A stretch of 64,000 nt of DNA from Mobula hypostoma (lineage: Eukaryota): NCBI RefSeq assembly GCF_963921235.1, contig NC_086108.1, positions 78,742,001-78,806,000 of the forward strand, in the 5' to 3' direction. A model generated the notes under the pieces. That model searched no databases and was not told the DNA's origin. It saw only the letters and a list, made by a program, of their open reading frames with translations. Numbering within the stretch: the stretch's first letter is position 1; each line of letters starts with the position of its first letter. Positions 4,266-47,400 of this stretch are shown piece after piece. Position numbers and translations under genes: made by a program.

Positions 4266-5199
4266 ATGTCTGTGAGGCTGGTGTTCTGTACTGGGTGTCA
4301 GATGTGGGAAGTCCGGGAGACTCCCAGCCTCCCGGAAGGCCACACCTGCGCCAGGTGCGTTGAGCTGCAGCTCCTCAGGGACCAGGTTAGGGAACCGGAG
4401 GTGCAGCTCGATGACCTTCATCTGGTCAGGGAAAGTGAGGAGGTGATAGAGAGGAGCTACAGGCAAGTAGTCACACCGGGGCCTCGGGAGAGAGATAAGT
4501 GGGTAACAGTCAGGAGATGGAAGGGGCAAGAGTCAGATACTAGAGAGTACCCTGTGGCTGTCCCCTTAACAATAAGTACTCCTGTTTGAGTACTGTTGGG
4601 GGGGGGGCCTACCTGGGGCGGGGGGGGCAACAATGGCCCCACCTCTGACACAGAGTCTGGCCCTGTGGCTCAGAAGGGTAGGGAAAGGAAGAAGGCAGTA
4701 ATAGGGCACTCTCTTGTCATGGGGTCAGACAGGCGATTCTGTGGATGCAGTAAAGAAATATGGATGGTAGCTTGCCTTCCAGGTGCCAGGGTCCAGGATG
4801 TTTCTGGTCGCGTCCACGATATCCTGAAGTGGAAAGGTGATCAGCCAGAGGTCGTGGTCCATGTTGGTACCAACGACGTAGGTAGGGAAATGGGAGGAGG
4901 TCCTGATAACAGACTACAGGGAGTTAGGAAGGAAGATCAGGAGCAGGAGCTCAATGGTAGTAATCTCAGGATTACTGCCTGTGCCACGCGACAGTGAGTA
5001 TAGGAATAGAATGAGGTGGAGGATAAATGCGTGGTTAAGGGATTGAAGCAGGGGGCAGGGATTCAGATTTCTGGATCATTGGGACCTCTTTTGGGGCAGG
5101 TGTGACCTGTACAAAAAGGACGGGTTGCACTTGAATCCCAGGGGGACAAATATCCTGGCGGGTAGGTTTGCTAAGGGCACTGGGAAGAGTTTAAACTAG
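4266..5199 (+). pseudogene. CR1 ORF1 (Cys zinc finger, coiled coil, SGNH esterase), frameshifted
   Basis: CTGC..CARC, LQLLRDQVRE, VIGHSLV, CLPGARVQDV, VVVHVGTNDVG, DGLHLNPRG; ends AGT TTA AAC TAG at 5199. Confidence 0.85.
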
Positions 5200-6146
5200 A
5201 ATTGTTAGGGAGTGGGAACCGAACTGAAGAGACGGAGGAAGGGGCGGTTGGCTCACAAATGGAGAAAGTTTGGAGACAGTACAAGAGGGAGGATAGGCAG
5301 GTGATAGAGAAGGGGAACGCTCAGACCAATGGTTTCAGAAGTGCCTGTTTTAATGCAAGAAGCATCGTGAACGAAGTGGATGAGCTTAGAGCATCAATCA
5401 GTACTTGGAGTTATGATGTTGTGGCCATTACAGAGACTTGGATGGCTCAGGGGCAAGAATGGTTAATTAGAGTGCCAGGCTTCAGATGTTTCAGAAAGGA
5501 CAGGGAGGGAGGCAAAAGAGGTGGGGGTGTGGCACTGCTGATCAGAGATGGTGTCACGGCTGCAGAAAAGGAGGAAGTCATGGAGGGATTGTCTACTGAG
5601 TCTCTGTGGGTGGAAGTTAGGAACAGGAAGGGGTCAATAACTCAGCTAGGTGTTTTTTATAGACCAGCCAATAGTAACAGGGACATCGAGGAGCAGATAG
5701 GGAGACAGATTCTGGAAAAGTGTAATAATAACATGGTTTTCGTGGTGCGAGATTTTAATTTCCCAACTATTGATTGGCATCTCCCTCGAGCAAGAGGTTT
5801 AAATGGGGTGGAGTTTGTTAGGTGTGTTCAGGAAGGTTTCTTGACACAATATGTAGATAAGCCTACAAGGGGAGAGACTGTACTTGATTTGGTATTGGGA
5901 AATGAACCTGGTCAGGTGTCAGGTCTCTCAGTAGGAGAGCATTTTGCAGATAGTGATCACAACTCTATCTCCTTTACCATGACATTGGAGAGGGATAGGA
6001 ACAGACAAGTTAGGAAAGCATTTAACTGGAGTAAGGGGAAATATGAAGCTATCAGGCAGGAACTTGGAAGCATAAATTGGGGACAGATGTTCTCAGGGAA
6101 ACGTACAGAAGAAATGTGGCAAATATTCAGGGGATATTCGTGTGGC
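5190..6146 (+). pseudogene. CR1 ORF2 apurinic-like endonuclease domain
   Basis: FNARSI, VAITETW, GGGVALL, FYRP, DFNFP, LDLVL and SDHN motifs in one open frame. Confidence 0.9.
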
Positions 6147-6590
6147 ATATGAGGAACATTTGTCCGCTCTTGGACTGTATTCCTTGGAGTTTAGAAGAAT
6201 GAGGGGAGACCTCATAGAAACATTTCAAATGTTAAAAGGCATGGACAGAGTGGATGTGGCAAAGTTGTTTCCCGTGATGGGGGAGTCTAGTACGAGAGGG
6301 GATGACTTAAGGATTGAAGGGCGCCCATTCAGAACAGAAATGCGAAGAAATTTTTTTAGTCAGAGGGTGGTGAATCTATGGAATTTGTTGCCACGGGCAG
6401 CAGTGGAGGCCAAGTCATTGGGTGTATTTAAGGCAGAGATTGATAGGTATCTGAGTAGCCAGGGCATCAAAGGTTATGGTGAGAAGGCGGGGGAGTGGGA
6501 CTAAATAGGAGAATGAATCAGCTCATGATAAAATGACGGAGCAGACTCGATGGGCCGAATGGCCTACTTCTGCTCCTTTGTCTTATGGTC
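6147..6590 (+). mobile_element. 5'-truncated CR1 3' end nested in the CR1 above
   Basis: YEEHLSALGLYSLEFRRMRGDLIE...GYGEKAGEWD plus 3'UTR ending tcttatggtc; near-identical to 36124-36562. Confidence 0.9.
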
Positions 6591-7304
6591 ATTCTGCATA
6601 GGTACGTTCCAATGAAGCAGGGAATAGATGGTAGGGTACAGGAACCGCAGTGTACAAAGGCTATTGAAAATCTAGTCAAGAAGAAAGGAACAGCTTAAGA
6701 AAGGTTCAAAAACCTAGATAATGATACAGAACTAGAAGATGATAAGGCTAGCAGGAAGGAGCTTAGAATGAGAGAGCCTAAAGGGGCCATGAGGCCTTGG
6801 CGAGCGGGATTAAAGAAAACCCCAAGGCATTCTACAAACATGTGAAGAGCAAGAGGATAAGACGTGAGAGAATAGGACAAATCAAGTGTGACAGTGGAAA
6901 AATGTGTATGCATAATATCTGAGGTACTTCATGAAAACTTTGCTTCAGGATTCACTATGGAAAAGGACCTTGGCGATTATTGGTAACTGTTACCATCAAC
7001 TTCATCCATGCCTCTTATAATTTTAAACACTTCTCCAAAAATCACCCTTCATTTATGTACATTCCAAGGGATAAAGACCTCACCCGGTCAGCCTCTCTCT
7101 CTGTAACTTTGGTCCTCTAGTCCTGCAACATCGTCATAAATCTTCTCTGCATTCTTTTCAGTTTAACAACGTATTCTATAATAAAGCAACCAAAATTGTA
7201 TACAAAACTCCAAGTGTGGTCTCACCAACAACTTATTATCTGGATTATCCCAATCCCTATACTCAATACCTTGACTGATGAAAGCCAGTACATACTAAAT
7301 CACT

Positions 7305-8611: not shown

Positions 8612-11600
8612 AGGTTTGCTAGAGAGGATCCAGTGGATGTAAACTAGATACAAGGGGGGAGGGGAACCACAGTGTAGGAACAGATGTAGGGGAGAAGGAA
8701 GAAAAAGAAAATAGTAAAGTCGTTTGCATCGTTAGTGATAAACAGAGAGGAAGAGGTAGAAGATTTCTTAAATGCATTTATTTCAATGCTAGGAGCATCA
8801 TAAGAAAGGTGGATGAGCTTAGAGCATGGACTGATACCTGGAAGTATGATGTTGTAGCTATTAGTGAAACATGGTTGCAGGAGGGGTGTGATTGGCAACT
8901 TAAATATTCCTGGATTTCGTTCCTTCAGGTGTGATAGAATCAGAGGGACAAGAGGGGGAGGTGTTGTATTGCTTGTCAGAGAAAGTATTACAATGGTGCT
9001 CTGGCAGGATAGATTAGAGGGCTTGTCTAGGGAGGCTTTTGGGTGGAATTGAGGAATGGGAAAGGTGTAGTAACGCTTATAGGGGTGTATTATAGACCAC
9101 CTAATGGGGAGCGAGAAGTGGAAGAGCAAATTTGTAAGGAGATAGCAGATATTTGTAGTAAGCACAAGGTTGTGATAGTGGGAGACTTTAATTTTCCACA
9201 CATAGACTGGGAAGCCCATACTGTAAGAGGGCTGGATGGTTTGGAGTTTGTAACATGTGTGCAGGATAGTTTTTTGCAGCAATACATAGAGGTACCAACT
9301 AGAGAAGGGGCAGTGTTGGATCTCCTGTTAGGGAATGATATAGAATGAGATAGGTCAGGTGACGGAGGTATGTATCACTTCGGGTCCAGTGATCACAATG
9401 CCATCAATTTCAATATAATTATGGAGAAGGATAGGTCTGGACCCAGGATTGCGATTTTTGATTGGAAAAATGCCAACTTTGAGGAGATGCAAAAGGATTT
9501 AAAAGGAGTGGATTGGGACAAATTGTTTTATGGGAAGGATGTAACAGAGAAATGGAGGTCATTTAAAGGTGAAATTTCGAGGGTACAGAGTCTTCATGTT
9601 CCTGTTAGGTTGAAAGGAATGGTTAAAAGTTTGAGAGAACCATGATTTTCAAGGGATATTGGAAACTTGGTTCAGAAAAAGAGAGACATCTACAATAAAT
9701 ATAGGCAGCATGGAGTAAATGAGGTGCTAAAGGAATACAAAGAATGTAAAAAGAATCTTATGAAAGAAATTAGAAAAGCCATGAGGTTGCTTTGGCAAGT
9801 AAGGTGAAAATAAATCCAAAGGGTTTCTACAGTTATATTAATATCAAAAGGATAGTGAGGGATAAAATTGGTCCCTTAGAGAATCAGAGTGGACAGCTAT
9901 GTGTGGAACCAAAAGAGATGGGGGAGATTTTGAACAATTTCTTTTCTTCGGTATTCACTAAGGAGAAGGATATTGAATTGTATAAGGTAAGGGAAACAGG
10001 TACGGAAGTTATGGAAACTATGATTATTAAAGAAGAGGAAGTACTGGCACTTTTAAGGAATATAAAAGTGGATAAGTCTCTGGGTCCTGACAGGATATTC
10101 CCTAGGACCTTGAGGGAAGTTAGTATAGCAATAGCAGGGGTTCTGACAGAAATATTTCAAATGTCATTAGAAACGGGGATGGTGCCGGAGGATTGGCATA
10201 TTGCTCATGTTGTTCCATTGTTTAAAAAGGGTTCTAAGAGTAAATCTAGCAATTATCAGCCTGTGAGTTTGATGTCAGTGATGGGCAAATTGATGAAAAG
10301 CAGTCTTAGAGATGGTATATATAATTATCTGGATAGACAGGGTCTGATTAAGAACAGTCAACATGGATTTGTGCAAGGAAGGTCATGTTTGACAAATCTT
10401 ATTGAGTTTTTTTGAAGAGGTTACTAGGAAAGTTGACGAGGGTAAAGCGGTGGATGTTGTCTATATGGACTTCAGTAAGGCCTTTGGCAAGGTTTCACAC
10501 GGAAGGTTAGTTAGGAAGGTTCAATTGTTAGGTATTAATATTGAGGCAGTAAAATGGATTCAGCAGTGGCTGGATGGGAGCCGCCAGAGAGTAGTGATGG
10601 ATAACTGTTTGTCAGATTGGAGGCCAGTGACTAGTGGTGTGCCTCAGGGATCTGTACTTGGTCCAATGTTGTTTGTCATATACATTAATGATCTGAATGA
10701 TGGGGTAGTAAATTGGATTAGTAAGTATGCAGATGATACTAAGATAGGTGACACTGTGGATAATGAAGTAGGTTTTCAAAGCTTGCAGAGAGGTTTAGGC
10801 CAGTTAGAAGAGTGGGCTGAAAGCTGGCAGATGGAGTTTAATGCTGATAAATGTAAGGTGATACATTTTGGTAGGACTAATCAAAATAGGACATACATGG
10901 TAAATGGTAGGGCATTGAAGAATGCAGTAGAACAGTAGGAATAATGGAGCATAGTTCCCTGAAGGTGGAATCTCATGTGGATAGGGTGGTGAAGAAAGCT
11001 TTTGGTATGCTGGCCTTTATAAATCAGAGCACTGAGTATAGCACTTGGGACGTAATGTTGAAATTGTACAAGGCATTGGTAATGCCAAATTTGGAGTACT
11101 GTGTACAGTTCTGGTCACCGAATTATAGGAAAGATGTCAACAGAATACAGAGAGTACAGACAAGATTTATTGGAATGTTACCTGGATTTCAGCACCTAAG
11201 TTACAGAGAAAGGTTGAACAAGTTGGGTCTTTATTCTTTGGAGCGTAGAAGGTTGAGAGGGGTCTTGGTAGAGGTATTTAAAATTATGAGGGGGATAGAT
11301 AGAGTTGACGTGGATAGGCTTTTTCCATTGAGAGTAGGGGAGATTCAAACAAGAGGACATGAGTTGAGAGTTAGGGGGCAAAAGTTTAGGGGTAACATGA
11401 GGAGGAACTTCTTTACTCAGAGTGTGATAGCTGTGTGGAACGAGCTTCCAGCAGAAGTGGTAGAGGCAGGTTTGATATTGTCATTTAAAATAAAACTGGA
11501 CAGCTATATGGCAGGAAAGGAATGGAGGGTTATGGGCTGAGTGCAGGTCGGTGGGACTGGGTGAGAGTAAGCGTTCGGCACGGACCAGAAGGGCCGAGAT

Positions 11601-23900: not shown

Positions 23901-25105
23901 CTAGGTGAGAGTAAGCGTTCGTCACGGGCTAGAAGGGCCGAGATGGCCTGTTTCCGTGCTGTAATTGTTATATGGTTAAAGCCATCTCGTAGGCATTCAA
24001 TAAACTCACTCTCTTGAGATCCATTACCAAGCTGATTTTTTCCAATTGACCTGCATGTTGAAACCTCCCATGACTATCATAACATTGCCATTTTGATACA
24101 CCTTTTCTATTCCCCTTTGTAATCTGTGGTCCACATCCCAGCCACCATTGGGAGGCCTGTATATAACTGCCATCAGGGTCCTTTTACTGCTCCAGATTTT
24201 TAACTCAACCAACAAGGAGTCAACATCTTTCTGACCCTATGTCACATCTTTCTACTGACTTGATGCCGTTCTTTACCAGCAGAGCCACACCACCCCCTCT
24301 GCCTACCTTCCTATCCCTCTGATACGATGTGTAACCTTGAACATTCAGCTCCCAACTACAACCATCCTTCAGCTATGATTCAGTGCTGGCCACAACATCA
24401 TACCTGAGAATCTGTAATAGCGCAACAAGATCATCCCCTTTATTTCTTATACTCCATGCATTGAGATATAACACCTTGAGTACTGTATTTGCTATCCTTT
24501 TTGATTCTGCATTCCTAATGCACTGGTACTCACCCTGCTGGCTGCAATTTTGTCCTATTATCTTCCTGCTCTTCCTAACAGTCTGACTGCATGCTATCTT
24601 TGCTTTTTTATCGTCTATCCTATCCTGAGTCTCTTCACTCTGGTTCCCACCTCCCATCAAATTGGTTTAAACCCTCCCCAACATCTCTAACAAACCTGCC
24701 CGTGAGAATACTGATCCCCTTGGGTTCAGGCGCAACGAGTCACTTTTGAACAAAAGAGATCCCAATGACACAAGAACCTGAAGCCCTGCCCCCTGCACCA
24801 GCTTCTCAGCCTCACATTAATCTGCCAAATCATCCTGTTTCTATCCTCACTGGCACGTGGCACAGGCAGCAATCCAGAAATCAATACTCTGGAGGTCCTG
24901 CTTCTCAGCTTTCTACCTAGCCCTCTAAATTCTCTTTTCAGGACCTCTGTGTTTTTATGTATCAAGACATCTGGTTGCTCTCCCTCCCTCCCCAAAATGC
25001 TGAGGATGAGACTGAGACAACCCTGACCCTGGCACCAGGGAGGCAACCTACCATCCGGGTGTCCCATTCACATCCACAGGGTCTCCTGTCTGTTCTCCCG
25101 ACTAT
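20910..25105 (-). mobile_element. CR1 LINE (end of ORF1, APE, part of RT, 3' end) with a large internal deletion
   Basis: Tail cataagaccataagac at 20910; LYLNAWSIRNK, VIYRPPN and LISGLLPVPRASE motifs; jump from the 3' end to mid-RT at about 21255. Confidence 0.9.
22221..23977 (+). mobile_element. 5'-truncated CR1 (RT to 3' end), same subfamily as 8612-11637
   Basis: TSD aaagc (22216-22220 / 23978-23982); YADDTK; collinear with 9834-11637. Confidence 0.95.
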
Positions 25106-44414: not shown

Positions 44415-47400
44415 CAGGTCGAGGAGAGAGAGCTTTAAAAATCAGTGCTTCATAGCCATTTTATCAGCTTGAACAGCGCCCAGTTGGAGCTTGCGATTCA
44501 TCAGCAAGGTCAAATAGACGTAAGACAGGAGCAAGTGGCACGGCCATTGTTGGAGTGGGGCAGTGTTGGCATGGGAAGACTTTTGGTTTTGGCTCAACAG
44601 GTTGGGTGATAACAGGCATGGGTACTTAAGCATCTGGTAAGCTTTTTCTTGCTCATTCTTCATCTGTTAGTGTATAGTTAGGGCAGTAAGAATCATTCCA
44701 AGGGCTGTGTTTTTTTTTTCTTTGTGTGAGATGTGGGAATTCTGGGAGACCTCCAGCCTCCCAGGTGCAGCGAGCTACAGTCGCTCAGAAAACATGTTAA
44801 AAAACTGGAGTTGCAACTCGAAGACCTTCGGCTCATAAGGGAAACTGAGGAGATGACAGATAGGAGCTACAGGGAGGTTAGACATCCTGAGGTTGCAGGA
44901 GGCAGGTGAATGGGTTACTGTCAGGAGAGGGAGGGAAATACACAGGCAGTACAGAGTACTCTGTGGCCGTTGCCCTCAATAACAAGTACAGTATATAGTT
45001 TTGGATAATATGGGGGGGGGGAGAAAAATGACCTACCAAGGGGGGCCCACAGCAACTAGGTCTCTGGTCTGGTTCTGAGGCTTAGGACAGAAGGGGGACG
45101 GGACAGGATTGCAGTAGTGATAGGAGATTCCATTGTTAGAGGAGTAGAGAGGAGAGTCTGTGGATGTGATAGAGAGACACAGATGGCACCTTGCCTCCCA
45201 GGTACCAGGGTCAGGGATGTCTCAGATTGCATCCATGACATTCTAAAGGGGGAGGGTGAGCAGCCGGATGTCTTGGTACATATTGGTATCAATAACATAG
45301 GAAGAAAAAGAGAGGAGGTCCTAAGGAGAAAATTTAGAGTTAGGTAGAAAGCTGAATAACAAAACTTCCAGGGTAGCAATCTCTGGATTGCTGCCTGTGC
45401 CAGTGAGGAAAAGCTTGCTAGAGCTACCAGGGAGTGTTTAAACTAATTTGGGAACTGGAGTGATAGGGCTGAGGTTAAGGATGTTAGTTTACAAGCAGAA
45501 GTAACATACAGTGAGACTGTGAGGCAGATGATGGGGCAAAAATGCAGCAGTGAGATGGGTTGCAATGTAAAAGGAGGACAAAATTGAATAGAGTGAGAAA
45601 TGCAAGACAGAAGGCGTTTTATTTGAATGCACACAGTATACGAAATAAGGTAGATGACCTTGTAGTGCAGTTAAAGATTGGCAGATACAACGTTGTGAGT
45701 ATAATGGAGTCATGGCTAAAAAACTATTGTAGCTGGAAGCCTAATATCCAAGGATACAAAATCTCTCGAAAGGCCAGACAGATAGGCAGAGGAGGAGGAG
45801 TGGTTCTGTAAGTAAAAAAAATTGAAATCAAATCTTTGCAAAGAGATGACATAGGATCAGAAGATACAGAATCTTGTGAGTAAAGTTAAGAAACTCTCCT
45901 GATGGGAGTTGTTTACAGGCCTCCGAACAGTAGCTAGGATGTTGTCTACAAAGTACACCGGGAAACAGAAAAAGCACGCCAAAAAGGCAGTGTTATGTTA
46001 GTCATGGGGATTTCAATATGCAGATATATTGGAAAAATCAAGTTGATGCCAGTTCCCAAAAGAGTGAATTTGTTGAATGTCTCCGAGATGGCTTTTAGGA
46101 GCAGCTTGTGGTTGAGCCCACTAGGGGATCAGTAATTCTGACCTGGGTGTTGTGTATTGAACCAGATATAAGGTAAAGCAACCCTGAGGAAATATTGATC
46201 ATAATATGATAGAATTCGCATGGGAATTTGAGAAGGAGAAGCTAAAATCAGCTAAATCAGTACTACAGTGGAGTACAGGGAATTATACAGGCATAAGAGA
46301 AGAGCTGGCCAAATTTGATTGGAAAGGGACCCAAGCAAGGATGTCGGTAGACCAGTGATGGCTGGAGTTTCTGGGTGTAATTCAGAAGGTGCAAGATACC
46401 CACAGCCCAAAGAAGAGGAAGTATTCTCAAGGCGAGGCAGGATGAAGCAACCATGGCCGACAAGGGAAATCAAAGCCAACATAAAAGCAAAAGAGAGGGC
46501 ATATAATAGGACAAAATTCAATGGGAAGTTAGAGAATTGGGAATTTTTTAAAAAAAGACAACAGAAGGCAACTAGAAAAGCTATCGAGGGGAGAAGCAGA
46601 AATATGAAGGTAAGCTAGCCAATAATATCAAAAATGATAACAAAGGTTTTTTACTGATATATAAAGAGTAAAAGAGAAACGAGTAGATATTGGAAAATGA
46701 CGCTTCTGAGATAGCAACAGGGACAAGGAAATGGTGAACGAACTGTATCTTGTATCAGTCTTCACTGTGGAAAACATAAGTAGCGTGCTGGACATTCGAG
46801 AGTATCAAGGGGCAGAAATGTGCACAGTTGCTATTACTCGGGAGATGGTGCTTGGAAAACTGAAAGGTCTGAAGGTAGAAGGTAGATAAGTCATCCAGAC
46901 CTGATGGATTACACCCCAGGGATTCTGAAAGTGTAACTGATGTGATGGTGGAGGCACAAGTAATGATCTTTCAAGAATCAATAGAGATGGTTCTGGAGGA
47001 ATGGAAACTTGCAAATGTCACTCCACTCTTCAAGAAGGGATGGAGACAGAAGAAAGGAAATTACAGGCCAGATAGCCTGACCTTAGTGGTTGGGAAGATG
47101 CTGGTGTCAATTGCTAGGATGTGGCTTCAGGGTACTTGGAGGCACATAATAAAATAGGACAAACAAATGGTTTCACTAAAGGAAGATCTTGCCTGACAAA
47201 TCTGTTGGAATTCTTTGAAGAAATAACAAGCAAGATAGACAAAGTAGAATCGGTGGGTGTTGCATACTTGGGATTTCAGGAAGGCCTTAGACAAGGTGTC
47301 ACATGAGACTGCAAAAGAAGGTAAGAGCCTGGGATAGTACATGAAAGATTATAGCATGCATGAAGCATTGGCTGAGAGACAGGAGGCAAAATGTGGGAAT

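Follow-up and report, generated by a model that had tools for sequence, protein, structure and literature searches.

The window, meaning the whole 64,000-nt stretch of Mobula hypostoma DNA that was analysed, carries a TTTAAAC sequence on the forward strand at 5190-5196, in the X_XXY_YYZ phase of an upstream ORF1 (context AAG AGT TTA AAC TAG, 5185-5199). The element is a CR1 LINE as judged from the identity of its junction with published CR1 rows, and a first-pass annotation had proposed that the heptamer is a programmed -1 ribosomal frameshift site joining the ORF1 esterase to ORF2. The in-phase position of the heptamer at the ORF1 end, directly ahead of the stop codon at 5197-5199, was confirmed. 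The features of this copy and of three further junctions in the window are as follows.

4266..5199, forward strand: CR1 ORF1 (Cys-rich N-terminus, SGNH esterase), ending Leu-Asn-stop, with frame breaks and stops
5172..5174, forward strand: TAA of the -1 frame, five codons 5' of the slip-site TTT; absent in family E
5190..5196, forward strand: candidate slippery heptamer U_UUA_AAC, in ORF1 phase
5197..5199, forward strand: ORF1 stop TAG, adjoining the 3' end of the heptamer; TAA or TGA in other families
5197..5351, forward strand: linker in the -1 frame, 54 codons to the APE Asn
5207..5220, forward strand: G-rich element (G5-6, 1-2 nt, GGGAAC), a candidate stimulator, starting 9-10 nt 3' of the heptamer
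5352..6145, forward strand: APE endonuclease region of ORF2, in the -1 frame (PF03372, PF14529)
6146..6591, forward strand: foreign insertion of 446 nt within ORF2 (blastn to loci L189 and L191)
8638..8668, forward strand: family C junction with heptamer (TGTAAAC here), stop and G-run
24641..24671, reverse strand: family B junction (stop decayed to CAA at 24662-24664) with G-run
45437..45457, forward strand: family D junction with heptamer and TAA, the G-run partly deleted

The ORF1 of the flagged copy was aligned by tblastn to the protein P0003 in two frames (4266-4889 and 4894-5196), and the named proteins nearest to it come from rays and skates. The profile of the ORF1 family matched PDB 4c1b, a solved LINE esterase, with an E value of 1.4e-34, and ORF1 homologues carry PF13472/PF00657 domains (GDSL/SGNH), while the window pieces alone gave weak Pfam matches. 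The annotation also had the -1 frame running from the TAA at 5172-5174 into an APE domain, and this held: the open -1 frame at 5175-6152 matched APE (PF03372, E 5e-12, residues 59-262), which is reached via the 54-codon linker. The TAA itself is probably a by-product of the ORF1 codons. An upstream -1 stop was ruled out as a component of the signal, because the -1 frame of family E is typically open for about 50 codons upstream. The flagged copy is dead, with a broken ORF1 and an interrupted and cut-off ORF2. The element picks up again at 6592 and ends near 6988, stopping short of the reverse transcriptase (RT), and its 3' end is missing. Translation of part of the insertion at 6146-6591 (frame 6076-6504) gives a sequence resembling the C terminus of another LINE ORF2.

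The three other junctions were found where they had been placed, at 8638, at 45437 and at 24671 on the minus strand. Thirty loci were collected per junction for families A (that of the flagged copy) to D, using queries that included the heptamer. Exact TTTAAAC was present in 29/30 loci of family A, 27/30 of B, 27/30 of C and 16/30 of the more decayed family D, and TAG or TAA followed the heptamer in 29, 27, 29 and 27 of the 30, respectively. Since 27 of 30 family B relatives have TAA and 27 of 30 family C relatives have TTTAAAC, the CAA at 24662-24664 (minus strand) and the TGTAAAC at 8638 are private mutations. The family B junction matches that of the published row HypSab_CR1-6b.

Because these queries contained the heptamer, a junction pattern in which it was left free was run genome-wide. 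This pattern gave 10,019 matches versus 50 for the reversed control, and 7,776 of the matches had exact TTTAAAC. Among the first 100 junctions listed, 83 were intact, 16 were single-base variants, none of which occurred more than three times, and one was unrelated. This represents a decay of about 3.6% per base, and no family with another heptamer appeared among these 100. Such scattered single-base variants are expected from the decay of dead copies. Free variation of the heptamer at synonymous positions, which had been named as the result that would speak against frameshifting, was thus not seen across the families.

The heptamer was constant whether the ORF1 stop was TAG, TAA or TGA, and the residue ahead of the Leu varied (Ser, Gly, Asp and Ala among others), with its third base constantly T. 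In 23 open ORF1 stretches, TTA accounted for 15% of the Leu codons, AAC for 27% of the Asn codons and T for 23% of the third bases, so that the chance of T + TTA + AAC is about 0.23 x 0.15 x 0.27, or near 1% per independent lineage. This within-genome codon test is a modest one, because 10 of 25 third positions upstream of the site are still common to A, B and C. The bare TTTAAAC is common, with 25 matches on both strands of the window, and consequently the evidence lies in its position and phase.

The same ORF1 ending was found far beyond this genome. Among 41 close homologues, nearly all that reach the esterase end finish with Leu-Asn, and the named LN-ending ORF1 proteins come from swallow, snake, monitor lizard, turtle, eel and sturgeon. 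Clustering at 50% identity gave 150 representatives, 89 of which had a complete esterase tail, 81 of them of the non-DGxHP type. The tails of 54 of these 81 were LN (43), GN (9) or KN (2), endings with a background frequency of 0.74%. When all Asn-ending tails were considered (n = 61), the preceding residue was Leu, Gly or Lys in 56, the residues of the codons UUA, GGA and AAA. Terminal LN, GN or KN was lacking in 27 of the 81, of which 12 hold LN, GN, KN, FF, FL or GF inside the tail. The ORF1 tails of P0098, P0129, P0131, P0161 and P0146 end near FF or GFL, and may encode U_UUU_UUY or G_GGU_UUU slip sites. In an unrooted esterase tree with protein-level labels (79 rows, tails removed), GN required five changes and KN two; because of the labels and the missing root, the tree was left out of event counts. 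The tail and junction counts are likewise not counts of independent events, since the lineages are related.

At the DNA level, the supplement of PMC13343379 was searched by motif in rows cut at 400 letters, which indicate presence only. Heptamer and stop were recognized by eye at the ORF1 end in 18 of 23 matches in this partial text, in rows whose codes were read as alligator, crocodile, bearded dragon, bullfrog, bowfin, halosaur, coelacanth, chimaera, sharks and rays. One lizard row had a TGA stop, and UAAUG was present in 3 of the 18 junction rows, including the catshark and dogfish consensus. The uncut table may contain families without the motif. In rows SquAca_CR1-3 and SquAca_CR1-18 of the same partial text, heptamer and stop also occur upstream of the apparent ORF1 start.

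Metagenome DNA was scanned using an esterase motif that omitted the junction. Of the 27 loci obtained, 14 had a complete ORF1 end, and the remainder comprised six false matches, four broken copies and three loci ending before the junction. Matches to the esterase motif in viral contigs (three) and prokaryote genomes (two) were rejected as false. Junctions other than TTTAAAC were available as DNA from three loci only, L147, L141 and L148. The first two have G_GGA_AAC followed by TAG and then a G-run, and the third has A_AAA_AAC 13 codons ahead of the ORF1 stop, with the -1 frame opening just upstream and reaching APE without a Met. ORF2 lies in the -1 frame in L147, where a Met stands directly ahead of APE, and in L148; the sequence of L141 stops 29 nt past the ORF1 stop. 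At 15-33 nt 3' of its A_AAA_AAC, L148 is C-rich and not G-rich, reminiscent of the arterivirus motif recognized by poly(C)-binding proteins. The esterases of L129, L138 and L150, which belong to another esterase ORF1 group, had no heptamer, and no APE or ORF2 was found in the 454-1182 nt of downstream DNA examined; low-complexity sequence follows ORF1 in these loci.

The LN, GN and KN tails, together with G_GGA_AAC and A_AAA_AAC ahead of a -1 ORF2, indicate that one strong slip site has been swapped for another. The forms TTTAAAC, GGGAAAC and AAAAAAC are among the four shiftiest heptamers for mammalian ribosomes (PMC5009743, partial text), and in open ORF1 stretches the three heptamers were found in phase at 0 of 4,727 other codon positions. 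The exchange is the strongest argument for frameshifting, because neither protein constraint nor reinitiation predicts it, and it stands on the three DNA loci and the protein tails. The earlier suggestion of an ORF1-ORF2 fusion is therefore supported by a heptamer that is kept across families and jawed vertebrates and is replaced, where it is replaced, by other strong heptamers.

Eight L2-type loci from the scan (L125, L127, L130, L133, L137, L139, L140 and L145) all had UGA-C at the ORF1 stop (8/8), and in L139 and L145 the stop context was UGA CUA G. APE was in frame 0 in seven of them, and five of these seven had no Met ahead of APE. Thus, in the L2-type elements ORF2 looks like a product of stop-codon readthrough, as far as can be told from these sequences. 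L137 has C_CCA_AAC ahead of the stop, yet its APE is in frame 0.

Among copies with an open -1 frame, a Met ahead of the APE Asn was absent in 16 of 21 family A copies and 28 of 29 family C copies, and the first common Met of both families comes 3' of this Asn. A candidate start codon of ORF2 is thus absent in most copies of A and C as well as in L148, and present in B, E and L147. The in-frame ATG at 5259-5261 of the flagged copy was ruled out as the ORF2 start, being a minority variant shared by just 3 of the 21 open family A copies. The linker has 49 codons in family C, 54 in A, 68 in E and 70 in B, its phase being kept throughout. The frames other than -1 contain on average 2.5-6 stops in these copies, whose selection required an open -1 frame. 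Family B copies have a linker Met in 7/7 open copies, at codon 38 in five of them.

In family E, TTTAAAC is followed by TAATG, giving a UAAUG overlap, absent in A, B and C, whose AUG is in the ORF2 frame. This motif was present in 30/30 family E loci (L201-L230) by selection; the family E pattern gave 347 exact matches and its TAATT form 2,452. Over the 30-nt junction motif, family E matches the catshark row ScyCan_CR1-1a. Ile occupies the position of the UAAUG Met in family B, and a sawfish row has Val there; as family E also keeps the heptamer, its Met may be an ordinary residue. Alternatively, family E may make dual use of the heptamer and UAAUG, and reinitiation may operate alongside frameshifting in families with UAAUG. 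A conserved AUG initiating ORF2, which the first-pass annotation had regarded as incompatible with frameshifting, is accordingly lacking in A and C, and the objection retains force for family E with its UAAUG and for family B with its linker AUG.

A pseudoknot-type fold had been suggested for the 80 nt downstream of the heptamer. Local folding of this region in 12 copies each gave mean z values of +0.35 for family A, -0.42 for B, -1.28 for C and +0.48 for D; the folds of A, B and D were no stabler than shuffles, and that of C reached a z of -1.28 but only about -5 kcal/mol. No consensus pairs were detected across 32 copies of A, B, C and E, and a duplex scan revealed no shared long-range partner of the G-run in the 11 of 18 longer stretches with a parsable junction. 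Nested-fold and duplex tests thus failed to find a stem-loop or pseudoknot-type element 5-9 nt 3' of the site, and the suggestion was not borne out by local, consensus or duplex scans.

Purines make up 69-83% of the 60 nt that follow the site, and a G-run within them has a pattern that is kept: 5-6 G, 1-2 nt and GGG, beginning 9-10 nt past the heptamer. The offset was 10 nt in 15/24 copies of family A, 6/12 of B and 30/30 of the pattern-selected family E, and 9 nt in 23/23 of C. The same spacing occurs in several crocodilian and cartilaginous-fish rows of the published partial supplement (PMC13343379). The G-rich tract ending in GGGAAC, as first described, stands as a pattern across families, and in the flagged copy itself the Gs at 5207 and 5211 are mutated to A. 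The Gly codons of the G-run are GGG, although GGG makes up 36% of ORF2 Gly codons, which suggests that the G-run is an RNA-level element. With no RNA structure found, the stimulator would be an unusual one. No natural quadruplex stimulator was known to a 2016 review (PMC5009743, partial text), and a protein-bound G-run is weakly favoured, by analogy with PRRSV frameshifting.

The junction is real, deeply conserved and of the recoding type. Layout, conservation, heptamer exchange, a linker that stays open in phase and the missing AUG of families A and C were observed directly, and from them we infer the slip itself and the fusion: a programmed -1 frameshift at the in-phase heptamer quite probably yields a CR1 ORF1-ORF2 fusion, on the strength of comparative sequence evidence. 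The majority of ribosomes would terminate at the ORF1 stop and release ORF1p. A minority would pause on UUA-AAC and slip to UUU-AAA, with tRNA-Leu and tRNA-Asn re-pairing in the -1 frame and CUA as the next codon, so that the product would read ...L-N-L... and consist of the esterase (ORF1p), the linker, APE and the reverse transcriptase, in this order. More tentatively, the pause would originate at the unstructured G-run that begins 9-10 nt further on and would most likely be bound by a protein, in the manner of arterivirus nsp2 frameshifting, and the adjacent ORF1 stop would perhaps aid it.

Termination followed by reinitiation would also bring ribosomes into ORF2, restarting one base back, at the AUG where UAAUG exists and otherwise without an AUG, with ORF2p as a separate protein, the mode reported for SART1 and mammalian L1. 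The UAAUG of family E and of the catshark and dogfish rows (PMC13343379, partial text) fits this scheme, as does the stop adjoining the heptamer in nearly all vertebrate families, and the ATT of family B stands where E has the AUG of its UAAUG. In addition, L1 ORF2 initiation is independent of its AUG (PMC5009743, partial text), and SART1 and L1 both depend on ORF1 translation (PMC2881922, partial text). We nevertheless consider reinitiation unlikely, since it leaves both the heptamer and its exchange for G_GGA_AAC and A_AAA_AAC unexplained. Moreover, the codon that overlaps the stop differs between the families (A, GAA; B, ATT; C, GAT; E, ATG), and among the first 100 junctions listed it is ATG in five; Met, Ile and Val interchange within one L-x-W-Q-G-D-G-N peptide; and the ORF1 of L148 extends 13 codons beyond its heptamer.

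The heptamer could instead be kept for reasons apart from ORF2, if the esterase needed a Leu-Asn end or a GTTTAAAC palindrome served packaging or dimerisation, ORF2 being translated from a downstream AUG or another transcript. In vertebrates the distance between LN and the DGxH motif is indeed constant at 26 residues, and a usable downstream Met exists in family B and L147. However, Leu, Gly and Lys have no common chemistry and instead share the XXA codon form, the synonymous bases of the heptamer are fixed, and the position of the first common Met in A and C, behind the APE Asn, is ill suited to a downstream start, which makes this explanation very improbable. The base 5' of the heptamer is G, A or C, so the palindrome is not kept, and its role was ruled out on this ground. 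An RNA-level event that unites the frames, either splicing to the AG of the TAG or a one-base transcriptional insertion, appears less probable still. Transcriptional slippage can use such runs, and the TAG of families A and C ends in AG. However, the AG is not conserved, as the stop is TAA in B, D and E and TGA in the lizard row, and no pyrimidine tract precedes the TAG; a splice acceptor was ruled out on both counts. Contigs of eight presumed-RNA runs, which are possibly DNA, contained no GT..AG joint and no joint across the junction recurring in two runs among the matches listed, which weighs neither for nor against splicing.

Among the retrotransposons of most vertebrates, those of the CR1 group predominate (PMC13343379, partial text), and the translation of LINE ORF2 is described in reviews as reinitiation. 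If CR1 frameshifts, recoding would be widespread in vertebrate genomes, the one analysed here having 7,776 or more intact sites, mostly in dead copies; the reverse transcriptase would be tethered to the esterase; and ORF2 annotations starting from a downstream Met would lose the first motif of the endonuclease. A wider proposal, which we put forward as doubtful, is that esterase-type LINEs as a group make their RT as a Gag-Pol-like fusion, CR1 via the -1 shift and L2 via UGA-C readthrough, the CR1 shift being driven by a novel type of stimulator, the unstructured G-run about 10 nt downstream, either bound by a host protein or ORF1p or folded as a quadruplex. The -1 shift would then range from rays to birds and to more distant animal lineages, and the G-run stimulator would let the host or the element tune the ORF1p:ORF2p ratio.

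No report of CR1 frameshifting was found in the literature searched, which also took in parts of PMC9004415, PMC6609765, PMC4120745 and PMC2734521 with its supplement; primary CR1 papers were outside this scope, and an earlier mention is possible. The canonical CR1 LINEs of vertebrates likewise have an esterase ORF1 followed by an APE ORF2, and in the portions of text searched of the two papers describing them (PMC13343379 and PMC3905857), the word 'frameshift' is absent and ORF2 translation is not addressed. Among non-LTR elements in general, frameshifting has been put forward before, since the Dictyostelium elements TRE5-A and TRE3-A, also of the APE type, are stated to need a -1 frameshift for ORF2 (PMC5911963, partial text); they belong to another clade and host, and are likened to CR1 by description alone.

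Zebrafish ZfL2-1 of the L2 clade, the source of PDB 4c1b, has an esterase homologous to CR1 ORF1 (E 1.4e-34). Kajikawa et al. 2012 reportedly described stop-codon readthrough into its ORF2, which would also give a fusion. In the L2-type loci found here ORF2 is in the same frame behind UGA-C, whereas in CR1 it is in the -1 frame. Compared with the UAAUG coupling of SART1 (PMC2881922, partial text), family E has the same register, while A, B and C have no UAAUG, and all have the heptamer.

The viral -1 sites (PMC5009743, partial text) have the same heptamers in the same phase and a polymerase ORF in the -1 frame, to which the AUG-free families A and C correspond; CR1 is not mentioned in the part of that review searched. 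The CR1 junction differs from them in that no 3' pseudoknot or stem-loop was found and in that its host is a non-LTR element. In this respect it is like the -2/-1 frameshift of PRRSV nsp2 (PMC4937337, partial text), which uses no RNA structure and has a short, conserved motif of low complexity set off by a spacer of some 10 nt. The PRRSV motif is C-rich and the CR1 motif G-rich, the slip sites differ, and a CR1 binding protein is hypothetical. In PRRSV, the C-rich motif is bound by proteins and the spacer has a working range of 9-11 nt (PMC4937337, partial text), and the G-run of CR1 is likewise a conserved unstructured motif lying within 9-11 nt 3' of the site.
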